NCBI GenBank assembly: GCA_964584165.1
Contig: CAZOYW010000002.1
Coordinates: 35,488 to 99,487, forward strand
Direction: 5' to 3'
DNA length: 64,000 nt
DNA from: an uncultured bacterium
GTDB taxonomy: Bacteria > Auribacterota > Erginobacteria > Erginobacterales > CAZKCI01
Part shown: in pieces, positions 6,528 through 62,848 of the stretch
Numbering within the stretch: position 1 is the stretch's first letter
Layout of the letters: every line of letters begins with the position of its first letter
Program-made: the position numbers and the translations under genes
Notes under the pieces: generated by a model
What the model saw: only the letters and a program-made list of their open reading frames with translations
What the model was told of the DNA's origin: nothing
Database searches by the model: none

Positions 6528-6694
6528 GGGGTTCCGGGCGGGGCGGGAAGAAAGCCGCGGATTACGCGGATTGCGCGGATTAAAAATAGATTCAGAAGAA
6601 GCCGGAGTGAGGGTGCCGGAAGCTTGGTGGCGTGAGCTGGTCGTTCCATAATCCGTGCCAATCCGCGCAATCCGCGGCCATTCTTTCGGGTTGT

Positions 6695-22117: not shown

Positions 22118-22250
22118 GTGCTTCGTAGCCGCGGTCTTTCAAGTCCGCGGGACGGGTCGCGCGGACCTCGTAAGGTCCGCGTTTACGAGAGCTTGACGGG
22201 TCGCGCGGACCTCGTAAGGTCCGCGCCTACGAGAGCTCGGCGGCGCGCTA
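22118..22250. repeat. REP-like compound hairpin element: unit A (ccgcggtctttcaagtccgcgg) plus a tandem ~40-bp unit B x2 (gtcgcgcggacctcgtaaggtccgcg)
   Basis: Read directly. A second copy with the units in swapped order is at 26266-26370. Confidence 0.85.
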
Positions 22251-22292: not shown

Positions 22293-22751
22293 ATGAAAAT
22301 CCCGCTGGACAAGATCGCCATCGACGAGGCGCACCGCATCCGCCGGGATCACGGGAACCTGGCCGCCCTCAAGGCCTCGATCTCGCGGCTCGGGCTCCTC
22401 AACCCGATCGTCATCGACGAGGAATACCGTCTGGTCGCCGGCTACCGGAGGCTCTTGGCCTGCCGGGCGCTGGGCTGGAAGGAGATCGACGCCCACCTCG
22501 TCCCTTTCCGCCGCGACCTCCTGCTCATGCTCGACGCCGAGGTGGACGAGAACCTGGCCCGGAAGGACTTCACGCCGGAGGAGATCATCGGGATCGAGCG
22601 TCGCCGCCAGGAGATCATCCGTCTTCTTAGGGGAAACTTCTTCCAGCGGATCTGGCGCTCTCTCCGCCGCCTCTGGTTCCGCCTCTTCCCCCCCCGCGCC
22701 CGTCCCGGCGCAAACAAGATTAACCGCGAATTCACGCGAATAAAGCGCTAA
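22293..22751 (+). CDS. ParB/Srx-like N-terminal-domain protein (small, 152 aa)
   Basis: IDEAHRIRRDHGNLAALKASISRLGLLNPIVIDEEYRLVAGYRRLLACRALGW is the ParB N-terminal (ParB/sulfiredoxin) fold. Good SD AAAGGAGA. Confidence 0.65.
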   Translation: MKIPLDKIAIDEAHRIRRDHGNLAALKASISRLGLLNPIVIDEEYRLVAGYRRLLACRALGWKEIDAHLVPFRRDLLLMLDAEVDENLARKDFTPEEIIGIERRRQEIIRLLRGNFFQRIWRSLRRLWFRLFPPRARPGANKINREFTRIKR

Positions 22752-22915
22752 TTGGATCGAATCGAGCCCACAATAGATTATCAACTACGAATTGCGCGAA
22801 TTACGCGAATTATCTCATCCGATCCCCATTCGCGAAATTCGCGTAATTCATAGTTTATTTCGCCGAGCCAAGCCGGGATGATTCGCGTTTTATTTGCTTG
22901 ATTCGCGGTTAAATT
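22741..22915. promoter_or_regulatory. AT-rich array of at least 6 TTCGCGAA-type 8-bp palindromes (parS-/operator-like) immediately 3' of the ParB-like gene
   Basis: gaattgcgcgaattacgcgaatt ... cattcgcgaaattcgcgtaatt ... gattcgcgttt ... gattcgcggtt. The local GC is far below the ~70% background. Confidence 0.6.
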
Positions 22916-25552
22916 TTAGCGCGTGACCGGGATGTCGCCGGTGGAGCCGAGGTAGACCCGGGTCAAGGCGCGCGCGTTCCACATCCCCGCCCCGTCGCGG
23001 AAGATCCCGGCGTCGTCGGCCCCCTCCCCGTCGTAGTCGGCCGGAACCGGCCGGTCGCCCGCGGCGCCGAAGTAGAAGGTGGTGAGGAGGCGGATCGCCC
23101 AGTAGCCGTTCGCCGGCCGGAAGACGGCGATCTCCGCGCGCCCGTCGCCGTCGTAGTCGGCGGGCGCGGCGATGTCCGCGCCCCCCCCGAAGTAGGCCCG
23201 GGTGACGTTCCGCGCCGACCAGAGGGACTGCGAGCCCCGGAAGACGGCGAGGTCCCTCGTCCCATCGCCGTCGTAGTCGGCGGGGACGGGAAGGTCGGCG
23301 GACCCGCCGAAGTATTCCCGGGTGAGGGCGTAGATCACCCAGAAGCCCGCCGCCGGGCGGAAGATCGCCGGGCGGCTCGACCCGTCGCCCGCGTAGTCGC
23401 CGGGGAGGACGAAGTCCTCCGCCCCGCCGAAGTAGACGCGGGTGAGGTTCCGGATCGACCACATGACCGAGGAGGGGCGGAAGATCCCGATCTCGCTAGT
23501 CCCGTCGCCGTTGTAGTCGGCGGGGACGGGGAGGTCGGCTATCCCGCCGAAGATGACCCGAGTGACGTTCCGGACCGTCCATTGGCCGTTCGCCTGACGG
23601 AAGATCCCGATCTCGCTCGTCCCGTCGCCGTCGTAGTCGCCGGAGGCAAGCACGTGCTTCGCGGGGGTGGGCGTGGCGGCCGTCCCCGGCGAGGGCGTCG
23701 GGGTCGCGGTTGCCGCGGGTCTGGGCGTCGGGGTGGGGCTCGGCGTCCGGCTCGGCGAAGGGGCCGGCGTGGCCGAAGGCGTCGGCGTGGCCGAGGGGAG
23801 AGCCGTGGGGGTGGGGGAGGGTGATGAGGTCGGGGAGGGGGAGGGCGTTTCATAGCCCGGCGGCGTGGAGGTGGGCGAGGCGGTAGGGCTGGGGGTGGGG
23901 GTCCGGGTCGGGGTGACGCTGGGTCCCACATTGAACTGGTTGCTCACGTCCCACTCCTCGGTCGCGCTTGGATAAGTCATCATCGCCCAGATCCGGAACT
24001 TGGTGGGTTGCAGTCCGCCGCCCGGCATGGGCAGATCGGCCTTGCAGTTCCAGTTATAGACGTGCTCGGCGCCGCCGAGGGAGGAGGTCAGATTGGACGT
24101 GTTTTCGCCCCAGGCCGCCTTGGTCGCCCCATACCAAAAATCCCCGGCAATGCTGTACTCGGCGCGGATGAGGGGGGTGGTGGAGCTGTTCCACGAGTAG
24201 AGGCGATAGTTCACCGGGACGGCGTTGGACCAGACGCGGCTGGGCAGGTCGTTGACCTCGACGGAGCGCGCCCCCTTCTTGATCCCCGCCCCCAGCTGTC
24301 GCCGCTCCTCCGGTGTCTCCGTCCGTCCGCTCCGGAGGAAGAAGTAGCTCGTCCCCAGACGGACGGAGTCGAGGTCGGCGTTGCCGAGCTCGTTCCAGGA
24401 GCCGGACTCCCCGCTCGCCTCCCCGATCTCTCCGATCGGCCATTCCCGCAAGACCCAGCGGAAGCCGTTGGTGGAGTACCAGGAGGCGATCGGACCGTCC
24501 TCGCCCTCATGCGTCCACATCATCCATCCCTGCCGGACGCCGTAGTAGTAGACCTCCTCGAAGGCGTCGAGATGGTCGGGATAGCTTAGGCCCGGATCGG
24601 TGTAGCCGGTGAAGGCGACGAGTTTGTTCGGTATCTGACCGGGGGAGCGGGTTCGGCAGTAGGGATCGTTGGCGTAGAGAGTCCAGTTGAGGCCGTTGGA
24701 GGATAGATAGAGCTCGTAGTAATAGGGATCGCCGTTCTCGGAGCTATTCAGGTACATCAGATAGCGGTTGTTCATGGAGTTGGAGTCGGTGGTGGAGAGC
24801 GCCGGGAGGCCTTCCGGGCGATAGAGGACGGTGGGCTTGGACATCACCCGGTAGGCGTCGACGGTCTTGGCCGCGGGCGGGCAGTACACCCCTTCCGAGA
24901 AGGCGCGCCAGGAGACGCCGTCGGTGGACTCGGCGTACTGGAAGTGGCGGCCGGCGTCGGGAGGGGCGTTGGCGAACCACATCCGTCCCTTGATGCGCTG
25001 GCTCTCGGCCGTCCACCTCACCTCGAACTCCGGGAAGGTCTCCCGCGACCAGGCGACGGTGTGGCAGCCCATGCCGTGGGCGAAGAGGCTTTCGACCGCG
25101 ATCGCCTCCCCCCCGTTCCCGTATTCCCAGGCCATCCCGTCGGAGGAATGGGCGACGAAGAGCCGGCCGGATTCGGTGTCGTCCGTCCAGCCCTGGAAGA
25201 TCGCGGTGAGACGCGACCCGTCCCAGCCGATCGCGCTGTCGAAGGCCCCGTGTCCGTCCCGGCTCGGGATCGCGGCGGCGGAGCCTTGCGACCAGTCGGC
25301 GTAGGTAAAGCCCGTCCAGAAGGGGGGGATGGGGGTCTTGGCGGGGGAGGGCGTGGGCGTCGCGGTGGGTGTCGCGAGGGGCGTCGGCGTCCGGGGCGGC
25401 GTGGGGGTTTGGTATCCCGGAGGCGTGAGCGTCGGGGCCGCCGCCGGGGTCGGCGTGAAGAAACCTTCGGGCGTGGGCGGCGGGGTCTGCCCCCGCAGTG
25501 CCGGCGGCAGAATGAGGAGAACGGCGAAGGCGATGGCGGCCCGTCGTTTCAT
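22916..25552 (-). CDS. Secreted protein with Pro/Thr-rich linkers and 7 C-terminal FG-GAP/VCBS-type repeats (beta-propeller)
   Basis: Signal peptide [15 protein letters not shown], (TPTP)n linkers, and the repeated block PADYDGDG(T/R)xE(I/L)(G/A)(I/V)FR. Confidence 0.7.
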
Positions 25553-32699: not shown

Positions 32700-32748
32700 G
32701 TTACGTAAGGTTACGCAAGGTTATGTAAGGTTACGTAAGGTTACGGAA
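32700..32748. repeat. Five tandem 10-mers (G)TTACGTAAGG (the reverse complement of the 794-910 repeat) at exact 10-bp phase, abutting the radical SAM start codon
   Basis: gttacgtaaggttacgcaaggttatgtaaggttacgtaaggttacggaatATG; palindromic cores TTACGTAA / TTACGCAA / TTATGTAA / TTACGTAA / TTACGGAA. Confidence 0.9.
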
Positions 32749-32749
32749 T

Positions 32750-33733
32750 ATGGAAGCCGCGATCGTCGTCACCTACCGTTGCAACGCCCGCTGCGCGATG
32801 TGCGGGACCTGGCGGCACCCCTCCCGGCGGGAGGAGGAGTTCGCCCCGGAGCTCCTCCGGAAGCTCCCGCCGCTTGCCTTCGCCAACGTCACGGGCGGGG
32901 AGCCTTTCCTGCGGGAGGATCTCGCCGAGATCGTCTCCATCCTCTCCGGGCGCTCCTCCCGGGTGGTGATCAGCACCAACGGGTTCTTCACCGACCGGAT
33001 CATAGCCCTCTCGGACCGGTTTCCCTCCGTCGGCGTCCGGATCAGCCTGGAGGGCCTGCCCGCCGCCAACGACGAGCTCCGGGGGCTTAAAGACGGCTTC
33101 GACCACGGCCTGCGCACGCTTCTCGAGCTCCGTAGGCTCGGCCGGCGGGACATCGGCTTCGGGATCACCGTCTCCGACCGGAACGCCTCCGACCTGCTCG
33201 AGCTCTTCGAGCTGGCCCGGTCGATGCGGCTCGAGTTCGCCACCGCCGTCGTCCACAACTCCTATTATTTTCACAAGCAGGACAACGCGATCCGTGACCC
33301 GGATCATGTGATCCGGTGTTTCGAGGAGCTTGTCCGGCGGCTCCTCGGGAGCCGCCGGATCAAGGAGTGGTTCCGGGCCTACTTCAACCGCGGCCTGATC
33401 AACTACGTCCGGGGGCGCCCGCGCCTCCTCCCCTGCGCCGCCGGGGAGGACATGTTCTTCCTCGACCCCGCGGGCGAGGTCCGCCCCTGCAACGGCCTCC
33501 CCGAGGAGTCCGAGGAGACCAGCCTGGGGAACCTGAAGCGCGCCTCGTTCGAGGAGATCTGGCAGGGGGAGCGGGCGCGCGCGATCCGGGAGCGGTTGCG
33601 CTCCTGCCCCCGCAACTGCTGGATGATCGGGACCGCCGCCCCGGCGATGAAGAAGGATCTCATCCGGCCCCTGCGCTGGATCGCCCGGAACAAGATCCGT
33701 CTGGCGCTAGGGAAAGAGCTGGAGGAGATGTAG
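32750..33733 (+). CDS. Radical SAM protein with a C-terminal SPASM/twitch-like Cys cluster
   Basis: VVTYRCNARCAMCG is the CxxxCxxC motif. The C-terminal CAAGEDMFFLDPAGEVRPCNGL ... CPRNCW provides auxiliary-cluster cysteines. 327 aa. Confidence 0.75.
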   Translation: MEAAIVVTYRCNARCAMCGTWRHPSRREEEFAPELLRKLPPLAFANVTGGEPFLREDLAEIVSILSGRSSRVVISTNGFFTDRIIALSDRFPSVGVRISLEGLPAANDELRGLKDGFDHGLRTLLELRRLGRRDIGFGITVSDRNASDLLELFELARSMRLEFATAVVHNSYYFHKQDNAIRDPDHVIRCFEELVRRLLGSRRIKEWFRAYFNRGLINYVRGRPRLLPCAAGEDMFFLDPAGEVRPCNGLPEESEETSLGNLKRASFEEIWQGERARAIRERLRSCPRNCWMIGTAAPAMKKDLIRPLRWIARNKIRLALGKELEEM

Positions 33734-33877
33734 TATCGTCCGGTGTTCGCTCGCGCGAACACCGGAATTGAAGTATCTCCTTCCCGATTCGCCGGCGAAT
33801 CGAGAAGGATCGCCGGGCCGGCTGAATACGGAAGGAGTTTGGCCCCAACCGCTCGCATAATTATTCATCATTCGCTA

Positions 33878-33922
33878 AGTCCATGCCGTCCATATCGTCC
33901 ATTCCGTCCATAACGTCCGCCG
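33878..33922 (+). repeat. 9-bp-periodic GTCCATNNC array (x4-5) directly upstream of the GT4 gene; it lies within a 22-codon uORF (33883-33951) encoding MPSISSIPSITSAAFPGADLRP
   Basis: gtccatgccgtccatatcgtccattccgtccataacgtcc. The uORF stop overlaps the GT4 ATG (ATGA). Confidence 0.7.
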
Positions 33923-33947
33923 CCTTCCCCGGGGCTGACTTGCGCCC

Positions 33948-35060
33948 ATGAAAGTCGTCGTCGTCGGGACCCGCGGCTTCCCCGGCGTCCCCGGGGGGGT
34001 GGAGCGGCACGGCGAGGAGCTCTATCCCCGCCTCGCCGAGAGGGGGTGCGAGGTCACCGTTCTGACCCGGGCGCCCTACCTCCCCCCGGCGGGGAGGCTC
34101 AAGGAGTGGCGGGGCGTCCGCTTCCTCCACCTCGGAGCCGTCCGCTCCAAGCATTTCGAGGCCGCCCTCCACACCCTGCGGGGCGTGCTCCTCGCCCGCC
34201 GCCTCCGGCCCGATCTCCTGCACGTCCACGCGATCGGCCCCGCCCTCTTCGTCCCGCTGGCCCGCGCCCTCGGCTTGCCGACGGTGATGACCGACCACGG
34301 CCCCGACTACCGGCGGTCCAAGTGGGGGCGGTTGGCCAAGGCCATGCTCCGGCTCGGCGAGTCCGCCGGCGTCCGCTGCTCCACGCGCGTGATCGCGGTC
34401 TCGCGGGGGATCGCGTCCGACCTCGCCGAGAGATACCGCCGCGCCGACATCGCCTACATCCCCAACGGGGTGCCCATCCCCGCCCCGGTCCCGCCGGGCG
34501 AAACCCTGCGCCGGCTCGGCCTTTTCCCCGGCGGCTACCTTCTCACCGCCTGCCGGTTCGTCCCGGAGAAGGGGCTTTCCACCCTGGCCGAGGCCTTCCG
34601 CCTCCTTCCGTCGCCGGAGGCGAGGCTGGTGATCGCCGGGGGGGCCCAGCTTGGCGACCCGACCGAGCGGGCTCTCCTCTCGGCCGCGCGCGCCGACCCC
34701 AGGATCGTTCTCCCCGGCTTCCTCTCCGGACGGCCGCTCGCGGAGCTCTTCTCCCACGCCGGCCTCTTCGTCCTTCCCTCGCTCTATGAGGGGCTCCCGA
34801 TCGCGCTCCTCGAGGCCCTCTCCTACGGCCTCCCGGTCGCGGTGAGCGACATCCCTCCCCACCGGGAGATCCCCCTCCCTCCCTTCCGCTATTTTCCCCC
34901 CGCCGCCCCGGCGGCGCTGGCGGGAAAGATCGCCGAGTGCCTGGAGCGGGGGATAACCGAGGAGGAGCGAGCGTCCGCCCTCGGCCTCCTCCGGCGCGAT
35001 TTCGACTGGGACGCCATCGCGGAGAGGACGCTCGCCGTCTACCGCTCGGCCCTCCCATAG
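33948..35060 (+). CDS. Glycosyltransferase family 4
   Basis: MKVVVVGTRGFPGVPGGVERH ... LPSLYEGLPIALLEALSYGLPVAVSD. Confidence 0.8.
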   Translation: MKVVVVGTRGFPGVPGGVERHGEELYPRLAERGCEVTVLTRAPYLPPAGRLKEWRGVRFLHLGAVRSKHFEAALHTLRGVLLARRLRPDLLHVHAIGPALFVPLARALGLPTVMTDHGPDYRRSKWGRLAKAMLRLGESAGVRCSTRVIAVSRGIASDLAERYRRADIAYIPNGVPIPAPVPPGETLRRLGLFPGGYLLTACRFVPEKGLSTLAEAFRLLPSPEARLVIAGGAQLGDPTERALLSAARADPRIVLPGFLSGRPLAELFSHAGLFVLPSLYEGLPIALLEALSYGLPVAVSDIPPHREIPLPPFRYFPPAAPAALAGKIAECLERGITEEERASALGLLRRDFDWDAIAERTLAVYRSALP

Positions 35061-35099
35061 GTCTTATAGGTCCTATAGGTCCTATAGGACCTATAAGAC
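35061..35099. terminator. Near-perfect 39-bp palindrome/hairpin (gtcttataggtcctatagg|tcctataggacctataagac) immediately after the GT4 stop
   Basis: Read directly. Arms are complementary apart from the central unit. It is an AT-richer island. Confidence 0.5.
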
Positions 35100-35146
35100 C
35101 TATGGGAGGGCTGGAGTTTTCGTCCGCCTTGACCTATGATCGCCCC

Positions 35147-37640: not shown

Positions 37641-38780
37641 ATGAGAATCGGCATCAATGCGCTTTATCTCATCCCCGGCCGGGTCGGCGGTTCCGAGATC
37701 TACCTGCGCCGCCTCCTGCAGGGCCTGGCCGCCCTCGACCGGGAGAACGACTATGCGGTCTTCACCAACCGGGAAAGCCGGGGGGGGCTGGCCCTGGGGC
37801 CGAACTTCAAGGAGTATCCCTGCTCCGTCCGCGCCCGCTTCCGCCCCCACCGGATCCTCTGGGAGCAGATCGTCCTTCCCCTCCGGGCGAGGAAGCTTAA
37901 GCTTGACCTCCTCCACTCCCCCGGCTTCACCGCTCCGCTCTTCTGCCCCTGCCCGTCGCTGGTGACGATCCTGGACCTGATCTACCTGGACTTCCCCGAA
38001 ACCTTCCCCCCCTTGGCCCGGGCGATGATGAGGTTCTTCACCCGCCGCTCCGCCCGCGGCGCGGCGCGGGTGATCGCTCTCTCCGGCTACTCGCGCGACG
38101 AGATGCTCTGGGAGCTGGATCTGCCCCCCAACCGGGTCAGCGTCGTCCCGCTGGGCGCGCCCGAGCGGGAGTCGGACGGGCTCTCCCCGGAGGGGAGGAG
38201 GGAGATCCTCTCCCGCCGCGGCATCGTCGCTCCCTACATCCTGGCCATCGCCGCCGCCCATCCCCACAAGAACATCATGCGCCTCCTGGAGGCCTTCTAC
38301 CACCTGCGCCGGAAGGGGCTCCCCCACCGGCTGGTCGTGGTGGGCGTGATGCACGGGCGCTACTACGGGGAGCTCCAGAAGGCGTGCGACCGCTTGGAGA
38401 TCGGGCGGGAGGTCGTCTTCACCGGCTGGATCCCCGAGGCGGAGAAGGAGTCGGTCCTGGCCGGAGCCGATCTTCTCGCCTTCCCCTCCCTGCTCGAGGG
38501 GTTCGGACTCCCGGTCCTGGAGGCGATGAAATTCTCCGTCCCGGTGGCCTGCGCCGACGTGCCCTCCCTGCTCGAGGTCACCGGCGACGCGGCCTACCTC
38601 TTCAACCCCTACTCGGTGGAGGAGATCGCCCGGGCGCTGGAGGCCTGCCTGACCCTGCCGGACCTCCGCCGGGACCTGATCGCAAAGGGGAGGAAGCAGG
38701 CCGCGAACTTCTCCTGGGAGAAGACCGCGCGGCAGACGCTCGACCTCTACCGGTCGGTCGCCGCCGGGGATAAACAGTGA
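37641..38780 (+). CDS. Glycosyltransferase family 4
   Basis: MRIGINALYLIPGRVGGSEIY ... PSLLEGFGLPVLEAMKFSVPVACAD. Confidence 0.8.
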   Translation: MRIGINALYLIPGRVGGSEIYLRRLLQGLAALDRENDYAVFTNRESRGGLALGPNFKEYPCSVRARFRPHRILWEQIVLPLRARKLKLDLLHSPGFTAPLFCPCPSLVTILDLIYLDFPETFPPLARAMMRFFTRRSARGAARVIALSGYSRDEMLWELDLPPNRVSVVPLGAPERESDGLSPEGRREILSRRGIVAPYILAIAAAHPHKNIMRLLEAFYHLRRKGLPHRLVVVGVMHGRYYGELQKACDRLEIGREVVFTGWIPEAEKESVLAGADLLAFPSLLEGFGLPVLEAMKFSVPVACADVPSLLEVTGDAAYLFNPYSVEEIARALEACLTLPDLRRDLIAKGRKQAANFSWEKTARQTLDLYRSVAAGDKQ

Positions 38781-38863
38781 TCAGCAATCAGTGATCAGTT
38801 ATCAGCAACATCCGTCCATCTCTTTTCACTGATCACTGATTACTGATCACTGTTCACTGATCC
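38775..38863. repeat. Compound inverted repeat with 7-bp-periodic arms (TGATCAG...CTGATCA) after the GT4 stop
   Basis: gtgatcagcaatcagtgatcagttatcagca-N19-actgatcactgattactgatcactgttcactgatc. The same family recurs at 45159-45257. Confidence 0.8.
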
Positions 38864-39922
38864 CTGCTTCTCTCCCTTCCGCCGCCTTTCCCGGGCCAGC
38901 TCCTTCTCGAAGGCCGGCCAGAAGGGGTCGGCGAGCGGTTGGCTGAGCCGCCGCGCCCGTCCCCCGCCGAAGACGCGCACCCCCTCCCGTTCCGGGCGGA
39001 CCTCCCCGGCGATCGAGGCCGGGATCGCCGCCCGGTTGAGGGCGCGGATCACCCCCTCCGCCGCCCCGGGGCGGGCGGTGGCAAGGAGCGTCCCCTCGCT
39101 GATCGAGACGAAGGGATCGATCCCGAAGCAGGCGCAGGTCTTCTCGACCTCCTCCGGGATGATGATCCGGTCGAGGTCGATCCGCATCCCCACCCGGCTG
39201 TGGGCGGCGATCTCCCAGAGCCCGCCGAGGACGCCCCCCTCGGTGGCGTCGTGCAGGGCGGTCACCCCTCCCGCCGCGGCCGCGGTCAGGGCGTCCTTCA
39301 CCGTCGACATCCGGTAGTACACGTCCCGGGCCCGGCGGAGGAAAGCCCTCCCCCAGCGCTCCTCGAGCGGGCGGGGGAAATAGGCGGCGAGCAGGCCCGT
39401 GGTCTCGATCGCCGGCCCCTTGCTGACGATGACGGCGTCGCCGACCCGGGCCCGGGGGACGATCAGCTTCTCCCTCCGGTCGATCCCGAACATGGTGGCT
39501 CCGCCCACCATCGGGTAGTTGCACCCGGCGTAGCGGGCGGTGTGGCCGGTGGCGACCGCGATCCCGAGGCGAGCGCATTCCGCGTGGACGGTCCCCCACA
39601 TCCCGACGAGCTCGCGCTCGGTCATCGCGGGGGGGAGGTTGAGATCGATCGAGAGGTAGCGGGGGGCGATCCCGCTGACCGCGACGTCGCTGGCGATGAT
39701 GTGGACGGCGAACCAGGCGGCCTTCTCGATCCCCAGCTCCCGGGCGATGTAGAAGGGGTCGGTGGAGAGGACCAGGACCCGCGTCCCGAGGTCGATGACG
39801 CCGAAGTCGACGCCCGCGCGGGGTTTGAGGATCAGGGAGGGGTCCCTCCGGCCGAGTTTCGGATAGATGTGGCGGCGGAAGAAATCGGGATGGATCTTCC
39901 CCAGCGGAGCCAGTTTCTTCAT
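38840..39922 (-). CDS. AIR-synthase-related protein (PurM/HypE/ThiL-like superfamily)
   Basis: FAVHIIASDVAVSGIAPRYLSIDL ... GIAVATGHTARYAG ... ALHDATEGGVLGGLWEIA parallels HypE/PurM-fold motifs. It lacks HypE's C-terminal Cys. Confidence 0.6.
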   Translation of the reverse strand: MKKLAPLGKIHPDFFRRHIYPKLGRRDPSLILKPRAGVDFGVIDLGTRVLVLSTDPFYIARELGIEKAAWFAVHIIASDVAVSGIAPRYLSIDLNLPPAMTERELVGMWGTVHAECARLGIAVATGHTARYAGCNYPMVGGATMFGIDRREKLIVPRARVGDAVIVSKGPAIETTGLLAAYFPRPLEERWGRAFLRRARDVYYRMSTVKDALTAAAAGGVTALHDATEGGVLGGLWEIAAHSRVGMRIDLDRIIIPEEVEKTCACFGIDPFVSISEGTLLATARPGAAEGVIRALNRAAIPASIAGEVRPEREGVRVFGGGRARRLSQPLADPFWPAFEKELARERRRKGEKQGSVNSDQ

Positions 39923-40232
39923 CTCTTCTCCTCCCGCGGCCGTTCGCCGCGGGCTGCGGTTGGTCGGGAAGATCGCGCCAACGGGGGCAAAACAAAGCCC
40001 CCCGGGCAGAGCACGGAGGGCGACGCGATCCTTTTCCCTACGCCGGCATTACCCGGATCAGGTCCGTCGGGTCTTCCGCTCCCCGCGGAACTCTCAGGCC
40101 GTGGCACGACCTCCCCGTGGTCGTCCCAGTCTCGAGGCAACCGGTCGTTGCTGTCAAGCCCAATCCCCCGGGATGTCTCCCCAATCCCTCGGCCCTAGCG
40201 TTGAGCATTTTCCCCGGTCGGGCATGAGACAC

Positions 40233-42558: not shown

Positions 42559-45170
42559 TCGCCGCCCGCCTTTCTTTTCTCCTCGGCCTCGCCCTCGTCT
42601 GCCCGGGCGGGGAGGCCGCGGGGGAGATCGCCTTCACCGCTCCCCCCGCCGCCCGCACCGTCCTCCCCAACGGCCTGACCGTGGTCGTCCGGGAGGACCG
42701 CGACCTGCCGGTCGCGGCCGTCCAGCTCTGGGTGCGGGCGGGATCCGTCTTCGAGGGCGTTCGGCTCGGCGCCGGCCTCTCCCACCTCGTCGAGCACCTC
42801 GCCTTCAAGGGAACGGCGGGGGCGGGCCAGGAGGAGATTCCCCGGAAGATCCAGGCCCTGGGGGGAGAGATCAACGCCTTCACCTCCCTCGACCACACCG
42901 TCTTCGACCTGAAGGTCCCCTCCGCCCGCCTCCGCCCCGCCCTCGCCCTCCTCCGGGACCTCGTTCTCGCGGTCGCCTTCGAGCCCGATGAGATCGCCCG
43001 GGAGAAGGAGGTCGTCCTCAAGGAGATGAACATGAACCGGGACGACCCGGACCGGCGGGTCTCCGAGCTTTTCTGGGCGACCGCTTTCCAGGTCCACCCC
43101 TACCGCTTCCCGGTCATCGGTTATCCCCGGATCCTGGAGGACCTCTCCGTCGAGGACGTGGTCTCCTACTACCGGACCTGGTACGTCCCGAACAACATGG
43201 TCCTCGCCCTCTCCGGCGATCTCTCCGCCGCCGAGGCCTTCGCCCTGGCGGAGGAGACCTTCCGGAACGACCCGCGGAAGCCCTACCCGCTCGCCTCCCT
43301 CCCCGAGGAGCCCCCCCAGCTCGTCGCCCGGGAGGCCGAGGAGACGATGGCGGTGGCCTCCGCCCGCCTCCAAGTCGGCTTCCACACCGTCAGCCTCTAC
43401 CACCCCGATCTCTACCCGCTGGACGTCCTGGCCATCCTGCTCGGGCAGGGGCGCTCCTCGATCCTCTGGCAGGAGCTTCGGGAGAAGCGGGAACTCGTCC
43501 ACGCGATCAGCGCCTCCTCCTACACGCCCTCCTATCCCGGGGTTTTCGTCGTTTCCGTCGAGCTCGATGACTCCGATCTCCCCGCGGCCCGCGCGGCGAT
43601 CGGGGAGATCCTGGGGCGGGTACGGGCGGGGGAGCTTCTGACCGCGGAAGGGTTGGAGAAGGCTCGCCGCCAGGTCCTGAGCGACTACGTGGGCTCGCTC
43701 CAGACCGTGGAGGGCGAGGCCCACGATCTCGGCTCCAGCCTCCTCCTCACCGGCTCTCCGGATTTCTCCCGGAGATACGTGGAGGGGATCGGCGCCGTCA
43801 CCCTTCCGGACCTCGCCCGGGTGGCGGCCCGCTATCTCGTCGACGACAACATGACCACGGCGGTCGTCCGCCCCCGTCCGGCCGCCCCGCCCAAGGCGGC
43901 GGCGACGCCGGCCGGGAAGGGGGAGATCCTCAAGCGGGTCCTCCCCAACGGGCTCACGGTCCTCGTCCGGTCCGAGCCCCGCCTCCCCCTGGTCTCGCTG
44001 CGCATCTTCTTCCGGGGCGGCGTGCTGGCCGAGACCGAGAAAAACAACGGGCTCGGCAACCTGCTCGCCCGGATGCTCCTCCAGGGGACGGCCGGACGAA
44101 GCGCCCGCCGGATCGCCGACGAGGTCGAGGGGAAGGGGGGATCGATCGGGTCCTACTCCGGGCACAACAGCTTCGGGGTTTCGGTCTCCGTCCTCTCCGA
44201 CGAGCTCAATCCGGGGCTGGACCTCCTGGCCGACGTTTGCCTTCACCCGACCTTCCCCCCCGAGGAGATCGAGAAGGAGCGGGCGGTGATCCTCTCCGAG
44301 ATCGCCGCGGAGCGCGACCAGCCGGAGACGATCGCCGGCCTCCTCGCCCGGGAGGCGATCTTCGGCTCCCATCCCTACCGCTACCGGGCGGTGGGGACGG
44401 AGGCGGCGGTCTTGCGGCTCGGGCGGGCCGACCTGGAGGAATGGCACCGGAGGTACTGCTGCGGCCGTAACGGGGTCCTCGCCGTCTTCGGCGACGTCGA
44501 TCCGGAGCGGGCCTTCGCCCTGGCGGAGAAGGCCTTCGCCGGTCTCCCGGCGGGGGAGGAGGCCGCCCTGGCCGGGCGCTTCCCCCGTTCCGTCCCGCTC
44601 TCGTCGCGCCGGGTCGAGTCCAAGCCGGGAGCGGCCCAGGCCGTCCTGATGGTCGGCTTTCCGGGCGTGGACGTGAAGAGCCCCGACCGCTATCCCCTGG
44701 AGGTCTTGAGCGGGATCTTCACGGGACTCGGCTCTACCCTCTTCATGCGGGTGCGGGACGAGCTGGGGCTCGCCTACTACCTGGGGGCGCACGAGATCCT
44801 CGGCCTCGACCCCGGAGCCTACATCTTCTACGCCGGGACGGTCCCGGGGAAGACCGAGACGGCGCTCGGGGAGATCCGCTCCGAGATCCGCCGGGTGCAG
44901 GAGGGCGGGGTCACGGAGGAAGAGCTCAAGCGCAACCAGGACCGCCTGATCGGCCGCCGCGAATTCAGCCTCCAGTCGAACGACGGTCTCGCCTTCGCCG
45001 CCGCCCTGGACGAGCTCTACGGCCTGGGCTACGACAACTACCGGGAGTACGAGGGGGAGATCAGGAAGGTCAACGCGGCCGATCTTCAGCGCGTGGCCCG
45101 GGAGTACCTGCGCTCCGACCGCTGCGCCGTGGTGATCGTGCAGCCGGATGAAAAAACAAGTGATCAGTAA
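42555..45170 (+). CDS. Fused tandem M16-family zinc peptidase (insulinase/PqqL-like, ~870 aa)
   Basis: Signal peptide. GLSHLVEHLAFKGT is the inverted HxxEH zinc motif in the first half. The second half is an inactive-type M16 repeat (NLLARMLLQGTAGRSA). Confidence 0.8.
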   Translation: MIAARLSFLLGLALVCPGGEAAGEIAFTAPPAARTVLPNGLTVVVREDRDLPVAAVQLWVRAGSVFEGVRLGAGLSHLVEHLAFKGTAGAGQEEIPRKIQALGGEINAFTSLDHTVFDLKVPSARLRPALALLRDLVLAVAFEPDEIAREKEVVLKEMNMNRDDPDRRVSELFWATAFQVHPYRFPVIGYPRILEDLSVEDVVSYYRTWYVPNNMVLALSGDLSAAEAFALAEETFRNDPRKPYPLASLPEEPPQLVAREAEETMAVASARLQVGFHTVSLYHPDLYPLDVLAILLGQGRSSILWQELREKRELVHAISASSYTPSYPGVFVVSVELDDSDLPAARAAIGEILGRVRAGELLTAEGLEKARRQVLSDYVGSLQTVEGEAHDLGSSLLLTGSPDFSRRYVEGIGAVTLPDLARVAARYLVDDNMTTAVVRPRPAAPPKAAATPAGKGEILKRVLPNGLTVLVRSEPRLPLVSLRIFFRGGVLAETEKNNGLGNLLARMLLQGTAGRSARRIADEVEGKGGSIGSYSGHNSFGVSVSVLSDELNPGLDLLADVCLHPTFPPEEIEKERAVILSEIAAERDQPETIAGLLAREAIFGSHPYRYRAVGTEAAVLRLGRADLEEWHRRYCCGRNGVLAVFGDVDPERAFALAEKAFAGLPAGEEAALAGRFPRSVPLSSRRVESKPGAAQAVLMVGFPGVDVKSPDRYPLEVLSGIFTGLGSTLFMRVRDELGLAYYLGAHEILGLDPGAYIFYAGTVPGKTETALGEIRSEIRRVQEGGVTEEELKRNQDRLIGRREFSLQSNDGLAFAAALDELYGLGYDNYREYEGEIRKVNAADLQRVAREYLRSDRCAVVIVQPDEKTSDQ

Positions 45171-45257
45171 TCAGTGATCAGCAGCGGGCAAACAGAGGCA
45201 TCGTTTTCTCGCTGATCACTGGTCGCTGATCACTGATCGCTGATCACTGATCACTGG
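45159..45257. repeat. Second compound TGATCAG 7-mer inverted repeat, between the M16 peptidase stop and the DUF1844 gene
   Basis: gtgatcagtaatcagtgatcagca-N33-gctgatcactggtcgctgatcactgatcgctgatcactgatcac. Confidence 0.8.
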
Positions 45258-45828: not shown

Positions 45829-47565
<1,737 letters not shown>

Positions 47566-47655
47566 GCCACCGAAGGCAAATTCATGCAAGAAAACCCATG
47601 GGAAAACCATCCTTATATATGAAAGCCGTTGTAGATCGGCGAAAGGAGGGTTCCC

Positions 47656-47937
47656 ATGAGCACTATTCAATGTTCCAAATTCAATCTCAGCGAGAGGTTC
47701 TTCCTCTTCGCCCTGGAAATTGTCAAGTTGGTACGATCCTTGCCCAACGATCCAGCCGCCCGGGAGATTGGGAAGCAATTGATCCGCGCCGGGACTTCGA
47801 TCGCTGCCAACTACGAAGAAGCCCTCGGTTCCTTCAGTAGGAAAGATTTCACCTATAAATTAAGTACCGCTTCTGCCTTCTCACTTCTAACTTCATATTT
47901 CTCACTTCTCATTTCTCACTTATGCCGAAGGCATTGA
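47656..47937 (+). pseudogene. Truncated four-helix-bundle protein gene ('23S rRNA intervening-sequence protein' family) bracketed by the inverted 7-mer repeats
   Basis: FNLSERFFLFALEIVKLVRSLPNDPAAREIGKQLIRAGTSIAANYEEALGSFSRKDFTYKLSTA matches helices 1-3 of the family. The expected fourth helix is replaced by repeat-encoded SAFSLLTSYFSLLISHL. Confidence 0.6.
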
Positions 47938-51138: not shown

Positions 51139-52659
51139 TCAGAGCCCGGTGGCCCAGTCGCGCGACCACTTAAGGATGCGGTCGAGAGGCGTGACCGGCC
51201 CGGCGGGAAGGGCGGCGAACCAGGCGTCGGCGATCCGCTGGGCGCCGGCCGGATAGCGGGGATGGATATGGTCCGAGATGTAGAGCTTGGAGTAGTCGCC
51301 GTAGTCGACCATCTTCTGCCAGGGGTCGGCGAGGCGGACCGCCTTGGCCGCGGCCAGGGGGCGGATGTAGCTCACGCTCAGCGTCCGGGAGCGCTGGCGG
51401 CAGACCTCGGTGTCGAAGCGGGGGACGATGGTGGCGAGGATCGGCTCCACCCCCTGGGCCAGGGAACGGTCGATCATCTCCCCGAGGTTCCACCGCGTGT
51501 CCGCGTAGTCGTCCCCGTCCGCGATGTCGTTGGTGCCGGCCATGAGCAGGAGCATCGTCGAGGGATAGCGGGCGAGGATGGAGTCGATGCCGGGGCAGTG
51601 ATGGACGTAGGGGTCGCCGTTCAGGAGGTGGTAGGTTCGCGTCCCGGGATAGCCCGCGTTCCAGATCGTGTAGAGGTTCCCGGGGTAGGCCTTCTCCAGC
51701 ATGGCGTTGAGGAGTGGGATGTAGCAGTCTCCCTTGTTGACGGTGCCCCAGGTGATGCTGTCCCCGTAGCCCGTGTAGTCGTGGTAGCTCGCCGCCCCCG
51801 CCGCCGGGAGCTCCTCGCCCGCGGCGGCGGCGGCCTGCCAGCGCCGGTTGTCCCAGGCCCCGGAGTCGTCCCGCCGGGCGCACCAGGCGCCCCGGGCGGC
51901 GAGTTCCGCCGAGGGGAGGGGGGGAGGGGGGAGGAGCCCTTCGAGGGAGCCGGCGGCCCCCGCCCAGAGAACGGAGGCTTTCCCGTCCGCCGCCCGGACG
52001 ACGGAGGGAAGGATGGCGTTGCTCCCCGGGGCGGAGGCGATGGCGGTCTCGCCCCAGGCGCCCTCGGCGCGGCGCCGCTCGTAGATGCGGGTCCGGCTGC
52101 CGTCCCAGCCCTGCCAGGCGGCCAGGAGCGCCCCGCCCGCGTCCGTTCCCAGGGCGGGCTTGGCGTCGGGCGAGTCGTCCGGGGAGGAGACCATCGTCTC
52201 CCCCGAGAAACCCTTCCCGTCGAAGCGGGCGCAGAAGATTTCGCTGCTCGCCCCGGCGCGGCGAGCATAGGCGATCCAGGGTACCCCCTCCCCGTCGAAG
52301 GCGAGCGCGGGGTTGGACTCCCAGCCCTCGCCCCCGGAAGCCCTCCGGGGCGGGGTGAAGCCGTCCCCCTCCCGCCGGCTGAAGTAGATCTGGGCGTCCG
52401 CGTCGTCTTTCTGGGCCGCCCAGACGATCCAGGGGTTCCCCCCGCTGTCAACCGCGACGCAGGGGAGGTAGTTGGCGGCGAAGCCGTCTCCGCCGTCGAA
52501 GGGCACGCTCTCCCAACCCTCACCGCCCGCCGTCCGGCTGAGGTGAATCGCCTTTCCCCCGGCCGCCGCATCGGACCAGGCGAGGTAGGCCTCTCCGGCC
52601 GCGGAGAAGGGAGGGAGGAGGAGAGACAGGGCCAGCAGGGTCGGGCAGGTGGTTTTCAT
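51139..52659 (-). CDS. Secreted protein: N-terminal beta-propeller-like repeats plus a C-terminal SGNH/GDSL hydrolase domain
   Basis: Signal peptide. Repeated GGEGWES / PWI(V/A)W(A/Y)A motifs. C-terminal YGDSITWG ... AGTNDI ... DHIHP. Confidence 0.6.
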   Translation of the reverse strand: MKTTCPTLLALSLLLPPFSAAGEAYLAWSDAAAGGKAIHLSRTAGGEGWESVPFDGGDGFAANYLPCVAVDSGGNPWIVWAAQKDDADAQIYFSRREGDGFTPPRRASGGEGWESNPALAFDGEGVPWIAYARRAGASSEIFCARFDGKGFSGETMVSSPDDSPDAKPALGTDAGGALLAAWQGWDGSRTRIYERRRAEGAWGETAIASAPGSNAILPSVVRAADGKASVLWAGAAGSLEGLLPPPPLPSAELAARGAWCARRDDSGAWDNRRWQAAAAAGEELPAAGAASYHDYTGYGDSITWGTVNKGDCYIPLLNAMLEKAYPGNLYTIWNAGYPGTRTYHLLNGDPYVHHCPGIDSILARYPSTMLLLMAGTNDIADGDDYADTRWNLGEMIDRSLAQGVEPILATIVPRFDTEVCRQRSRTLSVSYIRPLAAAKAVRLADPWQKMVDYGDYSKLYISDHIHPRYPAGAQRIADAWFAALPAGPVTPLDRILKWSRDWATGL

Positions 52660-52716
52660 GGACGAACATGTTAGATTCCGCTCTCCGCGCGGTCAATCAA
52701 AACCGTCCGCGGGAGG

Positions 52717-52790
52717 GTGATGGACGATATGGACGGGATGGACGGAATGGACTGAATTGATGGGATGGACCGAAGGACAAAACGGCGGAG
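52717..52790 (-). repeat. Second GTCCATNNC 9-bp-periodic array (x5-6, read on the minus strand), 60-130 bp upstream of the secreted SGNH gene; it encodes ...SIPSIQSIPSIPSISSI... in one frame
   Basis: The plus strand reads gatggacgatatggacgggatggacggaatggactgaattgatgggatggac. Confidence 0.7.
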
Positions 52791-52925
52791 CGCGCCGGCG
52801 GGATGAGGCGACCGGAGTGGAAGGGGCGAATGGGGGTTGAACGGCTGGCGCCGGAAAGGCGGATTAACATTGCCGGGGCCGCGGCGGGGTGGTAGTGTCT
52901 GGCGCAATCGATAGGAGAGAACATC

Positions 52926-59256: not shown

Positions 59257-59996
59257 GCCACCATATCGTGGAAGTCTCCGATCTGCACTACGCCTACCCG
59301 GACGGAACGCCGGCGCTCCGGGGGGTTTCCTTCCGGATCGAGCACGGCGCCGCGGTGGCCGTCGTGGGCGGCAACGGCGCCGGCAAGTCCACTCTCCTGC
59401 TCCACCTCAACGGCTACCTCAAGGCCGGGCGCGGAACGGTGCGGATCGGGGACACGATCGTCGTCCGCGAGACCGCCGCGGAGGCCCGCCGGGCGGTGGG
59501 GCTGGTCTTCCAGGATCCCGACGACCAGCTCTTCATGCCGACCGTGGAGGAGGACGTCGCCTTCGGACCGCTGAACGCGGGCCTTCCGCCCGACGAAGTC
59601 GAGGCCAGGGTGGCGTCGGCCCTGGAGCGGGTGGGGATGGCGCACCTGCGGGGGCGTCCGCCCTACCGCCTCTCCGCGGGCGAGAAGAGGGCCGTGGCGA
59701 TCGCGACCGCGCTCGCGATGTCTCCGGACATCCTGGTCATGGACGAGCCGTCCGCCCACCTCGACCCCCGCGCCCGCCGCCGGCTGATCAGCCTCCTCAA
59801 GTCCTTCGAGCACACCAGGATCATCGCCACGCACGACCTGGAGTTGGTCGTCGAGGTCTGCTCGCGGGTAATCGTCCTCGACGGCGGTCGCGTCGTCGCG
59901 GACGGGCCGTCCGCGGCGGTCCTCTCCGACGAGCCTCTGCTCATCGCCCACGGCCTCGAGCGCCCGCACATCCTCCGCCACCTCCACCCGCACTGA
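59253..59996 (+). CDS. cbiO: ECF transporter ATPase CbiO/NikO
   Basis: Walker [22 protein letters not shown] signature, Walker B ILVMDEP. Confidence 0.8.
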
Positions 59997-62771: not shown

Positions 62772-62848
62772 GTGTCAGGTGTAAGGTGTCAGGTGTCAGG
62801 GAAGCGGTGCTGCGGTTATTTTTTCCCTGACACCTAACACCTGACACC
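62772..62848. terminator. Compound inverted repeat with GGTGTCA 7-mer arms and a T-run (terminator / REP-like)
   Basis: gtgtcaggtgtaaggtgtcaggtgtcaggg-N-ttattttttccctgacacctaacacctgacacc. Confidence 0.7.

Follow-up and report, generated by a model that had tools for sequence, protein, structure and literature searches.

Short-unit tandem repeats of bacterial intergenic regions, such as long simple sequence repeats (LSSRs), short tandemly repeated repetitive (STRR) heptamers and TAACTGA heptamers, have been known for decades without an established function. The STRR heptamers of heterocystous cyanobacteria reportedly comprise several short tandem families scattered in intergenic regions. Here, we analyze two arrays of a 9-nt unit located upstream of a GT4-family glycosyltransferase gene and a GDSL/SGNH hydrolase gene in a 64,000-nt stretch of DNA from an uncultured bacterium of the phylum Auribacterota (contig CAZOYW010000002.1, positions 35,488-99,487; the whole stretch is referred to as the window). 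The two sites are best explained as non-coding members of a dispersed repeat family of the LSSR/STRR-type class, with a 6-nt GTCCAT core and a 3-nt variable spacer. The contribution of the analysis is a nonamer family whose core is demonstrably under selection, with drift in the other unit positions and in the spacer around the array, the recurrence of the same core in intergenic arrays of many phyla, and a strong polarity rule for inverted pairs that holds across unit families.

As with the STRR heptamers, several short tandem families are found in the intergenic regions of one genome; STRR units, however, are 7 nt long and cyanobacterial, whereas the unit considered here has 9 nt and belongs to a non-cyanobacterial lineage. 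LSSRs have units of 5-11 nt, are mostly intergenic and sporadically distributed, and are presumed to arise by slippage (Mrazek et al. 2007, as summarized in PMC4679880). The arrays of the window resemble them in the head-to-tail arrangement of 7-10-nt units beyond chance, in the mostly intergenic position, in the sporadic distribution, and in that a function is undemonstrated in both. From LSSRs as that summary presents them, the GTCCAT units differ in combining a fixed hexamer with a free trinucleotide, in the recurrence of the core across phyla, and in forming inverted hairpin pairs with a strict polarity.

The TAACTGA heptamers are common to marine Beggiatoaceae, some Cyanobacteria and Bacteroidetes and usually abut start codons (MacGregor 2015, PMC4679880); translational regulation by these repeats was proposed in the same paper and is unproven. 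Both repeats consist of one short unit in 2-6 copies, are intergenic, occur in distant phyla without evident transfer, and precede unrelated genes. The TAACTGA repeats, however, are forward, lie a few nucleotides from starts and have inverted copies in one of 170 cases (PMC4679880), whereas the GTCCAT units are 9 nt long, keep a distance of 27-60 nt or more to starts, are found in either orientation and often form inverted pairs. Six 15-mer versions of the repeat were not found in the full-text papers searched, and a literature search for nonamer or 9-bp bacterial repeats returned nothing relevant; where PMC4692102 deals with 6-9-nt simple sequence repeats (SSRs), it describes reports of them as rare. 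The GTCCAT-core nonamer is an addition to a known, functionally unexplained repeat class.

The two loci comprise the following features:

33740-33765 and 33780-33808, plus strand: two GC-rich hairpins upstream of array 1, directly after the stop codon of a radical-SAM/SPASM gene
33879-33914, plus strand: array 1, four perfect GTCCATNNC units with the spacers GCC, ATC, TCC and AAC
33915-33923, plus strand: decayed fifth unit of array 1, GTCCGCCGC
33883-33951, plus strand: 22-codon open frame from ATG 33883 to TGA 33949-33951, judged incidental
33921-33947, plus strand: 27-nt spacer from the core of the last array 1 unit to the GT4 ATG (alignment A1 and direct reading)
33948-35060, plus strand: GT4-family glycosyltransferase gene downstream of array 1 (Pfam domains)
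52714-52855, minus strand: segment of about 142 nt with array 2 and the terminator-like hairpin, missing in a 96 %-identical relative
52783-52797, minus (GDSL) strand: terminator-like hairpin with a T-run just upstream of array 2
52717-52778, minus strand: array 2, five perfect GTCCATNNC units and two decayed ones (ATCAATTCA and the 8-nt GTCCTTCG)
52696-52659, minus strand: promoter-like block of the GDSL/SGNH gene, -35 TTGACC (52696-52691), 17 nt, -10 TAACAT (52673-52668), 8 nt, ATG (52659)
51139-52659, minus strand: GDSL/SGNH hydrolase gene downstream of array 2 (Pfam PF13472)

Both arrays lie between genes and consist of head-to-tail 9-nt units, 4+1 and 5+2, respectively. The units of array 1 follow in the order GTCCATGCC, GTCCATATC, GTCCATTCC, GTCCATAAC (33879-33914, plus strand), and those of array 2, read on the minus strand from 52778 to 52717, are GTCCTTCG (8 nt), GTCCATCCC, ATCAATTCA, GTCCATTCC, GTCCATCCC, GTCCATATC and GTCCATCAC. 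The arrays end 27-36 nt (locus 1) and 57 nt (locus 2) from the downstream ATGs. An earlier interpretation made from the letters alone (the sequence-only reading) had reported arrays at these two loci, and direct reading confirms them: the window has 18 GTCCATNNC occurrences, compared to 6.6 ± 2.4 in dinucleotide-preserving shuffles, and none of 100 shuffles reaches 18. The excess comes wholly from the two arrays (9 matches), and the remaining nine singletons are at about the chance number. Since this is so, the GTCCATC copy at 38814-38822, within the loop of a hairpin element spanning 38775-38866, to which the sequence-only reading had drawn attention, is within chance expectation and is not considered meaningful.

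Evidence on constraint comes from orthologous GT4 loci, which were retrieved via the GT4 protein and maintain synteny from an FG-GAP gene to an AIRS gene. Upstream of GT4 there are four units in the window, four in L010 (98 % protein identity), three in L007/L008 (78 %), about five in L013 (78 %), one of them 10 nt long, and 3+1 in L328 (78 %); such length changes by whole units between relatives are a signature of slippage. The remaining upstream spacer (85-231 nt) is unalignable across lineages, while in four lineages the stretch from the core of the last unit through exactly 27 nt to the ATG is free of gaps (alignment A1), and in L328 the distance from the array to the ATG is shorter by exactly 9 nt. 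The counterparts aligned with the decayed unit GTCCGCCGC are GCCCGC (L010), GTCCAT (L007) and GTCCAG (L013). Between the window and L010, 50 of 190 aligned spacer positions differ, in addition to 18 gap columns, compared to 0 of 24 core positions (Fisher p = 0.0016). Because the core is unchanged in a spacer that has diverged by 26 %, and the array stays in the same modulo-9 register relative to the ATG, the GTCCAT hexamer core is shown to be under purifying selection.

GT4 homologues with identity of 62 % or less have no array, and their upstream gene either abuts or overlaps GT4 or is separated from it by an unrelated spacer. Because of this, the spacer with array 1 is identified, from the loci compared, as a clade-specific insertion into an ancestrally tight radical-SAM/GT4 junction. 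The hairpins at 33740-33808 are part of the spacer missing in more distant homologues, where the upstream gene abuts GT4. Named homologues of the GT4 and GDSL proteins are few, with 34-57 % identity, and are labeled as PVC (Planctomycetes-Verrucomicrobia-Chlamydiae) group, Omnitrophota or Auribacterota. For the PBP2 protein, identity to its relatives is 55-86 % and then drops to about 40 %, a level at which the few hits with a name are Nitrospinota and Thermodesulfobacteriota.

Within the species, array 1 is identical across six independent contigs, and identical GT4 contigs are found in several public metagenome runs. Copy-number variation within the species was thus not seen among these six contigs, and the units differ from each other at positions 7-8. 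A phase-variable contingency SSR was considered and rejected, as the units are imperfect, the six contigs are identical, and the array is not located between promoter hexamers.

The sequence-only reading had interpreted the 9-nt periodicity as coding, that is, as a translated (Ser-Ile-Pro/Ser)n leader peptide or attenuator. The 22-codon ATG-initiated open reading frame (ORF) on which this was based is present at 33883-33951: it encodes MPSISSIPSITSAAFPGADLRP, and its TGA overlaps the GT4 ATG (33948) as ATGA. According to this explanation, an upstream ORF (uORF) of 18-22 codons at locus 1 would be translated, and termination at the ATGA would re-initiate or couple GT4 translation, possibly sensing Ser/Ile/Pro decoding. 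The frame is open in all five lineages, in each of which its stop overlaps the GT4 start; it begins with ATG in the window and L010 and with GTG in L007 and L328, GT4 has no Shine-Dalgarno (SD) motif, and the ancestral upstream gene was tightly abutting, so that coupling may have been needed. Leader-peptide uORFs of the trp, his and pheA leader, tnaC and mgtL types resemble it in that a short open frame directly precedes a gene; in the present case, its stop overlaps the start of that gene.

The pattern of variation argues against translation. The codons of the Ser-Ile-Pro frame are TCC-ATN-NCG, and the arrays compared are matches of an exact GTCCATNNCGTCCATNNCGTCCAT scan, made with one genome per GTDB species. 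In intergenic arrays of many genomes (among the matches listed), unit positions 1-6, GTCCAT, are 96-99 % fixed and positions 7-8 are near random, an invariance of the core that is partly built in, as these arrays were obtained with a GTCCAT query and extended by a core-match rule. In particular, the invariance reaches 97-99 % at the wobble positions C4 and G1, whereas all four bases occur at position 8, a first codon position. Arrays found via protein orthology only, which avoid the bias of the query, have a mean within-array difference of 0.16 in the core versus 0.67 in positions 7-9. Because the wobble positions are invariant and the first codon position is free, the variation is the reverse of a coding signature.

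Moreover, the lineages have peptide tails that are not related to each other (SAAFPGADLRP, PAGFPGAGGRP, IGLREKAALP, SGPREGALLT, RPGRVLP), L013 has a 10-nt unit and no start nearby, no SD motif or other ribosome-binding site (RBS) precedes ATG 33883 by direct reading, and a convincing RBS is found in none of the five lineages. The open frame in relatives, on which the sequence-only reading had proposed to test translation, is not independent evidence for it, because the spacing changes only in 9-nt steps, and the ATGA overlap is a simple consequence of AAA being a common second codon. At the GC content of the window, a frame of 22 codons is also expected to be open by chance (our own estimate is about 0.6). 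As to attenuation, no terminator/antiterminator alternative was found by scanning and folding, and between array 1 and GT4 a sequence scan revealed neither a sigma-70 promoter nor an intrinsic terminator. Unlike the leader-peptide systems named above, the arrays lack a conserved start or RBS, show no logic of regulatory codons and form no alternative hairpins; conservation is at the level of nucleotides rather than codons, and the second copy lies outside the predicted transcript. Arrays elsewhere are also found in convergent spacers and in hairpins. The comparisons show a constraint that acts on the nucleic acid and not on a peptide; the arrays are non-coding, a regulatory mini-peptide being very unlikely, and translational coupling by the uORF at locus 1 has accordingly little to recommend it.

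The second locus leads to the same assessment. The Ser-Ile-Pro frame described in the sequence-only reading is present there (...SIPSIQSIPSIPSISSITLPRT..., with the end ...SIPSIQSIPSIPSISSITLPRTVLIDRAESGI before the stop), but its stop lies 11 nt, not 12 nt, upstream of the GDSL/SGNH ATG (52659). No ATG or GTG is found upstream of array 2 in this frame, the only in-frame starts being TTG 52907 and TTG 52700. A single sigma-70-like site was identified on the GDSL strand, compared to 0.0 ± 0.1 in shuffles. The block GGTTTTGATTGACCG...TA(A/G/C)(C/T)AT-N8-ATGAAAACCA is kept before the orthologues in L323/L324 (96 % identity), L325 (74 %) and L321/L322 (69 %), and the promoter pattern conserved across the four lineages is TTGACC-N17/18-TAnnAT-N8-ATG. 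This implies that the GDSL/SGNH mRNA would be leaderless and would start downstream of array 2. As a separate observation, the -10 hexamer ending 8 nt before the ATG suggests that leaderless mRNAs are used in the lineage of the window.

Array 2 is present in the same place in L321/L322 (6 units) and absent from L323/L324 and L325. In L323/L324, two independent assemblies, about 142 nt are cleanly missing, and the indel has 1-nt microhomology. We conclude that array 2 is no uORF, that it is dispensable, and that most likely it is outside the GDSL mRNA; with no ATG or GTG start, a position upstream of the predicted leaderless promoter and loss in the 96 % and 74 % relatives, the leader peptide suggested for this locus is not supported. 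The two loci demonstrate that arrays change by whole 9-nt units, as slipped-strand mispairing would give, and that they are gained or lost between close relatives.

The GTCCATNNCGTCCATNNCGTCCAT scan yielded at least 116 loci. About one third of the matches listed are coding repeats, e.g. (Gly/Asp)-Met-Asp runs in Actinomycetota, and the others are intergenic, mainly in Planctomycetota, Verrucomicrobiota, Lentisphaerota, Chlamydiota, Hydrogenedentota, BRC1, Chlorobiota, Nitrospirota, Armatimonadota and Acidobacteriota. Within the same set of listed matches, the copy number is mostly 3-5 (range 3-51 units), some genomes have 2-4 separate arrays within 8 kb, and the GTCCAT loci also hold many other arrays with 7-11-nt units. 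In the fetched loci, about 111 of 173 GTCCAT-core arrays are intergenic. In viral contigs, at least 116 motif loci were found versus 23 and 52 for two composition-matched permutations, a 2-5-fold excess, which is weak evidence.

The same orientation relative to the downstream gene, noted in the sequence-only reading for the two loci of the window, does not extend to other genomes. Among the matches listed, 25 arrays are sense and 19 antisense in co-directional spacers, with 14 in convergent and 14 in divergent ones, so that in other genomes the arrays are largely random with respect to genes. Genes of these foreign loci were called by a home-made codon-usage finder, so that start and stop distances are approximate; with these gene calls, arrays close to a stop codon are mostly antisense to the gene (19 of 41 within 40 nt, compared to 6 of 49 sense ones), whereas the sense orientation prevails 20-65 nt upstream of starts, in agreement with the polarity of inverted pairs described below. 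The use of SD motifs after sense arrays is at the background level, 6/17 (35 %) versus 243/639 (38 %).

The picture of only two such loci in the window also had to be revised, as at least seven further families of intergenic tandem arrays with 7-10-nt units were found in its spacers by Tandem Repeats Finder and direct reading:

793-914: ACGTAACCTT array, with its reverse complement at 32700-32745
6556-6582 and 6650-6676: CGCGGATTA array, inverted pair
22788-22849: CGAATTACG array, inverted pair
35053-35103: TCCTATAGG array, palindromic
38775-38866 and 45159-45256: CAGTGAT / CTGATCA arrays, inverted pairs
47484-47560 and 47877-47921: AGAAGTG / CTTCTCA arrays, inverted arms 330 nt apart
62772-62848: GTGTCAG array, inverted pair

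The spacers of this window, with its GC content of 68 %, are rich in short-unit tandem arrays. By the window gene map, which was also made with a home-made codon-usage gene finder, 14 of 24 period 7-10 arrays are within the 17 % of the DNA not called genes (p = 7e-6), and of the 33 spacers with a length of 40 nt or more, 12 (about one third) have at least one such array. The genes adjoining the arrays are functionally unrelated (PqqD, radical-SAM/SPASM, GT4, DUF2142, epimerase, DUF1844, FtsW/RodA, ParB_N-like, GDSL, outer membrane protein), and a common regulon was therefore rejected.

Arrays of opposite orientation may be paired, and these pairs follow a polarity rule. In GTCCAT inverted pairs within 150 nt (loci L014-L127), the purine-rich ATGGAC arm is 5' and the GTCCAT arm 3' in 19 of 20 cases (p = 4e-5), and in other families the purine-rich-5' arrangement is observed in 7 of 8 informative cases, including all four window pairs (38775, 45159, 47491, 62772). 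Folding energies of -40 to -69 kcal/mol (z from -6 to -12) were obtained for the inverted pairs on either strand; stability is about equal between the strands, i.e. there is no strand asymmetry that would be a sign of selection at the RNA level. The polarity suggests that purine-rich arms, which bear ATG/GTG and SD-like sequences, are not tolerated near starts. Its cause could be the avoidance of start-adjacent ATG/GTG, a hairpin requirement, or a defined polarity of the element.

In being intergenic and of high copy number, and in forming stable hairpins from inverted pairs, the arrays resemble repetitive extragenic palindromes (REPs) and bacterial interspersed mosaic elements. REPs, however, are single 20-40-nt palindromes with a GTAG/CGTC tag and a REP-associated tyrosine transposase, whereas the GTCCAT unit is a non-palindromic direct-repeat 9-mer.

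In another explanation, the arrays would act in translation by remaining unfolded: direct repeats of a C-rich, non-palindromic unit do not fold, and in a genome with a GC content of 68 % such a G-poor 5' leader of the mRNA would keep the SD-less GT4 start open to SD-independent initiation of the standby or S1 type. Indeed, direct reading shows no SD motif in the 33921-33947 spacer, and the GT4 leader (33865-33975) is less folded than 197 of 200 shuffles (z = +1.85). Three other window arrays end 0-4 nt before SD-less starts, namely 793-914 (ATG 917), 32700-32745 (ATG 32750) and 47877-47921 (ATG 47922), a placement that matches that of the TAACTGA repeats; 793-914 and 47877-47921 are pyrimidine-rich in the sense strand, while 32700-32745 is near-palindromic and G-rich. 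It is also the pyrimidine-rich arm of inverted pairs that adjoins downstream starts, and a precedent exists in MacGregor's proposal for the TAACTGA repeats (PMC4679880). An unstructured spacer, however, needs no invariant hexamer, and SD usage is not lower after sense arrays. Antisense arrays and arrays downstream of genes are about as frequent, and array 2 would be outside the GDSL mRNA if the promoter is real, with no structural depletion in its region (z = 0.18). This explanation is therefore considered improbable, if somewhat less so than the translated uORF.

We tentatively favor, at slightly less than an even chance, a reading in which each array is a slippage-resized cis-acting element, namely a multi-site DNA binding platform that would modulate the adjacent promoter or leader. 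A sequence-specific factor would read the GTCCAT core, present in 3-6 copies at a fixed 9-bp pitch. Array 1 would probably modulate GT4 expression from a promoter-proximal or leader region, in a fixed register to the start codon, while array 2, which precedes the -35 box of the predicted leaderless promoter by about 20-80 bp, could have an effect at the DNA level only and would be dispensable there; inverted unit pairs, as in other genomes and other families of the window, would form very stable intergenic hairpins. Binding to DNA is favored because array 2 can act only on DNA and because the orientation is mixed across genomes. A direct-repeat transcription-factor site was an alternative already mentioned in the sequence-only reading; it would agree with the strong selection seen at the core and, as a putative site, forms part of our best explanation.

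Cooperative arrays of short direct sub-sites are known for the omega heptads of pSM19035, MetJ met-boxes and Fur hexamer arrays. Like these, the arrays considered here have contiguous 6-9-bp sub-sites (three to ten) with a conserved core, direct or inverted, near promoters, and the 6-nt core at a 9-bp pitch in 3-6 copies is a feature of cooperative sub-site arrays. The differences are that the present arrays are chromosomal, numerous, of many families and also found downstream of genes, and that no cognate protein is known. Among other candidates, the high-GC DnaA box TTGTCCACA, the AlgR 9-mer CCGTTCGTC and the Pho boxes were set aside, as their spacing is 11-21 bp rather than a 9-bp head-to-tail pitch. 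DRT10 telomerase-like reverse transcriptases, which produce 9-nt tandem cDNA, are speculation here: the products are extrachromosomal, and no tie to the arrays was found, the window not having been scanned for a reverse transcriptase gene.

Several observations weigh against the binding platform. No candidate binding factor was identified. At least eight unit families in 64 kb would need many readers, and generic slippage is more economical. Array 2 has been lost in two relatives with the promoter unchanged, the orientation of arrays to genes is mixed across genomes, and the excess in viral contigs over permuted cores (at least 116 versus 23 and 52) is only 2-5-fold. The five GT4 lineages provide only about three independent comparisons, and the conserved register at GT4 could be mechanical rather than selected, as the arrays slip in 9-nt steps.

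The same observations are relevant to the explanation that the arrays are functionless or selfish, seeded by slippage or by a mobilizing enzyme that requires the core, with selection filtering only their orientation and position and with no role at GT4 or GDSL. It agrees with the many unrelated unit families in the window and in other array-bearing genomes, the absence of array 2 from the 96 % and 74 % relatives with an intact promoter, the range of 3-51 copies across genomes among the matches listed, the occurrence in every spacer type before functionally unrelated genes, and the background SD use after sense arrays (6/17 versus 243/639). Purifying selection against ATG/GTG-bearing purine-rich arms near starts might also suffice for the polarity rule, and the literature, as represented in PMC4679880, regards LSSRs as slippage products without known function. 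On the other hand, all nine positions should decay equally under neutral slippage, whereas the core stays fixed and positions 7-8 vary at random; array 1 persists, with perfect cores and a kept register, where the surrounding spacer is unalignable; and the same hexamer recurs in arrays of many phyla. No transposase-like partner or target-site duplication was seen. We regard the functionless origin as unlikely, though it is a serious competitor of the binding platform.

Other arrays of the window show features of their own. The leader array of the PqqD-like gene (917-1213), (ACGTAACCTT)n, is the reverse complement of that of the radical-SAM/SPASM gene (32750-33733), (AAGGTTACGT)n. PqqD-like proteins and radical-SAM/SPASM enzymes are functional partners. 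The two mRNA leaders could pair in trans, but the unit is near-palindromic, and this may be a coincidence.

The (TCCTATAGG)n array right after the GT4 stop (35045-35115) forms a near-perfect palindrome with a 33-bp stem (-63.6 kcal/mol). Short-read contigs of the species terminate inside this array, while relatives retain the unit there in 1-3 copies; arrays account for the breaks of short-read assemblies of the source organism at array sites. The inverted pair (CGCGGATTA)3...(TAATCCGCG)2-3 is found in L007 (12579-12761) and in the window (6556-6676) at non-orthologous places of these related genomes, and the inner sequences, of 135 nt and 67 nt, respectively, are unrelated. A possible implication is that the pairs of a given array family originate, or are moved, irrespective of the sequence they enclose.

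Between gmd and the epimerase gene, there is a low-GC insert of about 320 nt (47560-47877) with a truncated 23S rRNA intervening-sequence gene (ORF 47656-47862; PF05635, E = 1.6e-10), flanked by the inverted heptamers (AGAAGTG)n and (CTTCTCA)n. The gmd ORF runs into the first AGAAGTG array, which gives it a Lys/Arg-rich tail. A link of the arrays to four-helix-bundle genes of the 23S intervening-sequence type was rejected, as tblastn found none in 327 other loci.

At the gathering threshold, no Rfam match coincides with the arrays in the window or in 12 array-bearing loci; the only matches are a thiamine pyrophosphate (TPP) riboswitch (RF00059, 58.8 bits; 40018-40125, minus strand), upstream of a minus-strand gene starting at 39922, and a tRNA elsewhere. 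Longer repeats are also present: a 44-nt unit occurs twice (22151-22237) in the divergent spacer adjoining a small ParB_N-domain gene (22293-22751), and the FG-GAP protein gene contains coding repeats of 120/240 nt (23111-23643). A (GCGATC)n run (59697-59719; 3.8 copies, 76 % match), in a stretch without a gene call, resembles the cyanobacterial HIP1 core GCGATCGC.

For the annotation of such genomes, the analysis is a caution against calling micro-ORFs from 9-nt-periodic repeats. On a wider scale, GTCCAT-N3 arrays might be a platform for a nucleic-acid-binding protein or a mobilizing enzyme common to the PVC group, Hydrogenedentota, BRC1, Chlorobiota, Nitrospirota and others, and would then mark a cross-phylum system of cis-regulation or genome structuring; from the sequences at hand we consider this rather doubtful. 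If it were true, the polarity of inverted pairs (19/20) would reflect how this system, or transcription and translation, reads the arrays. If a reader protein exists, a widespread regulatory or chromosome-organizing system could emerge in poorly studied phyla, and if there is none, the arrays are a clean model of how slippage and purifying filters shape bacterial spacers.

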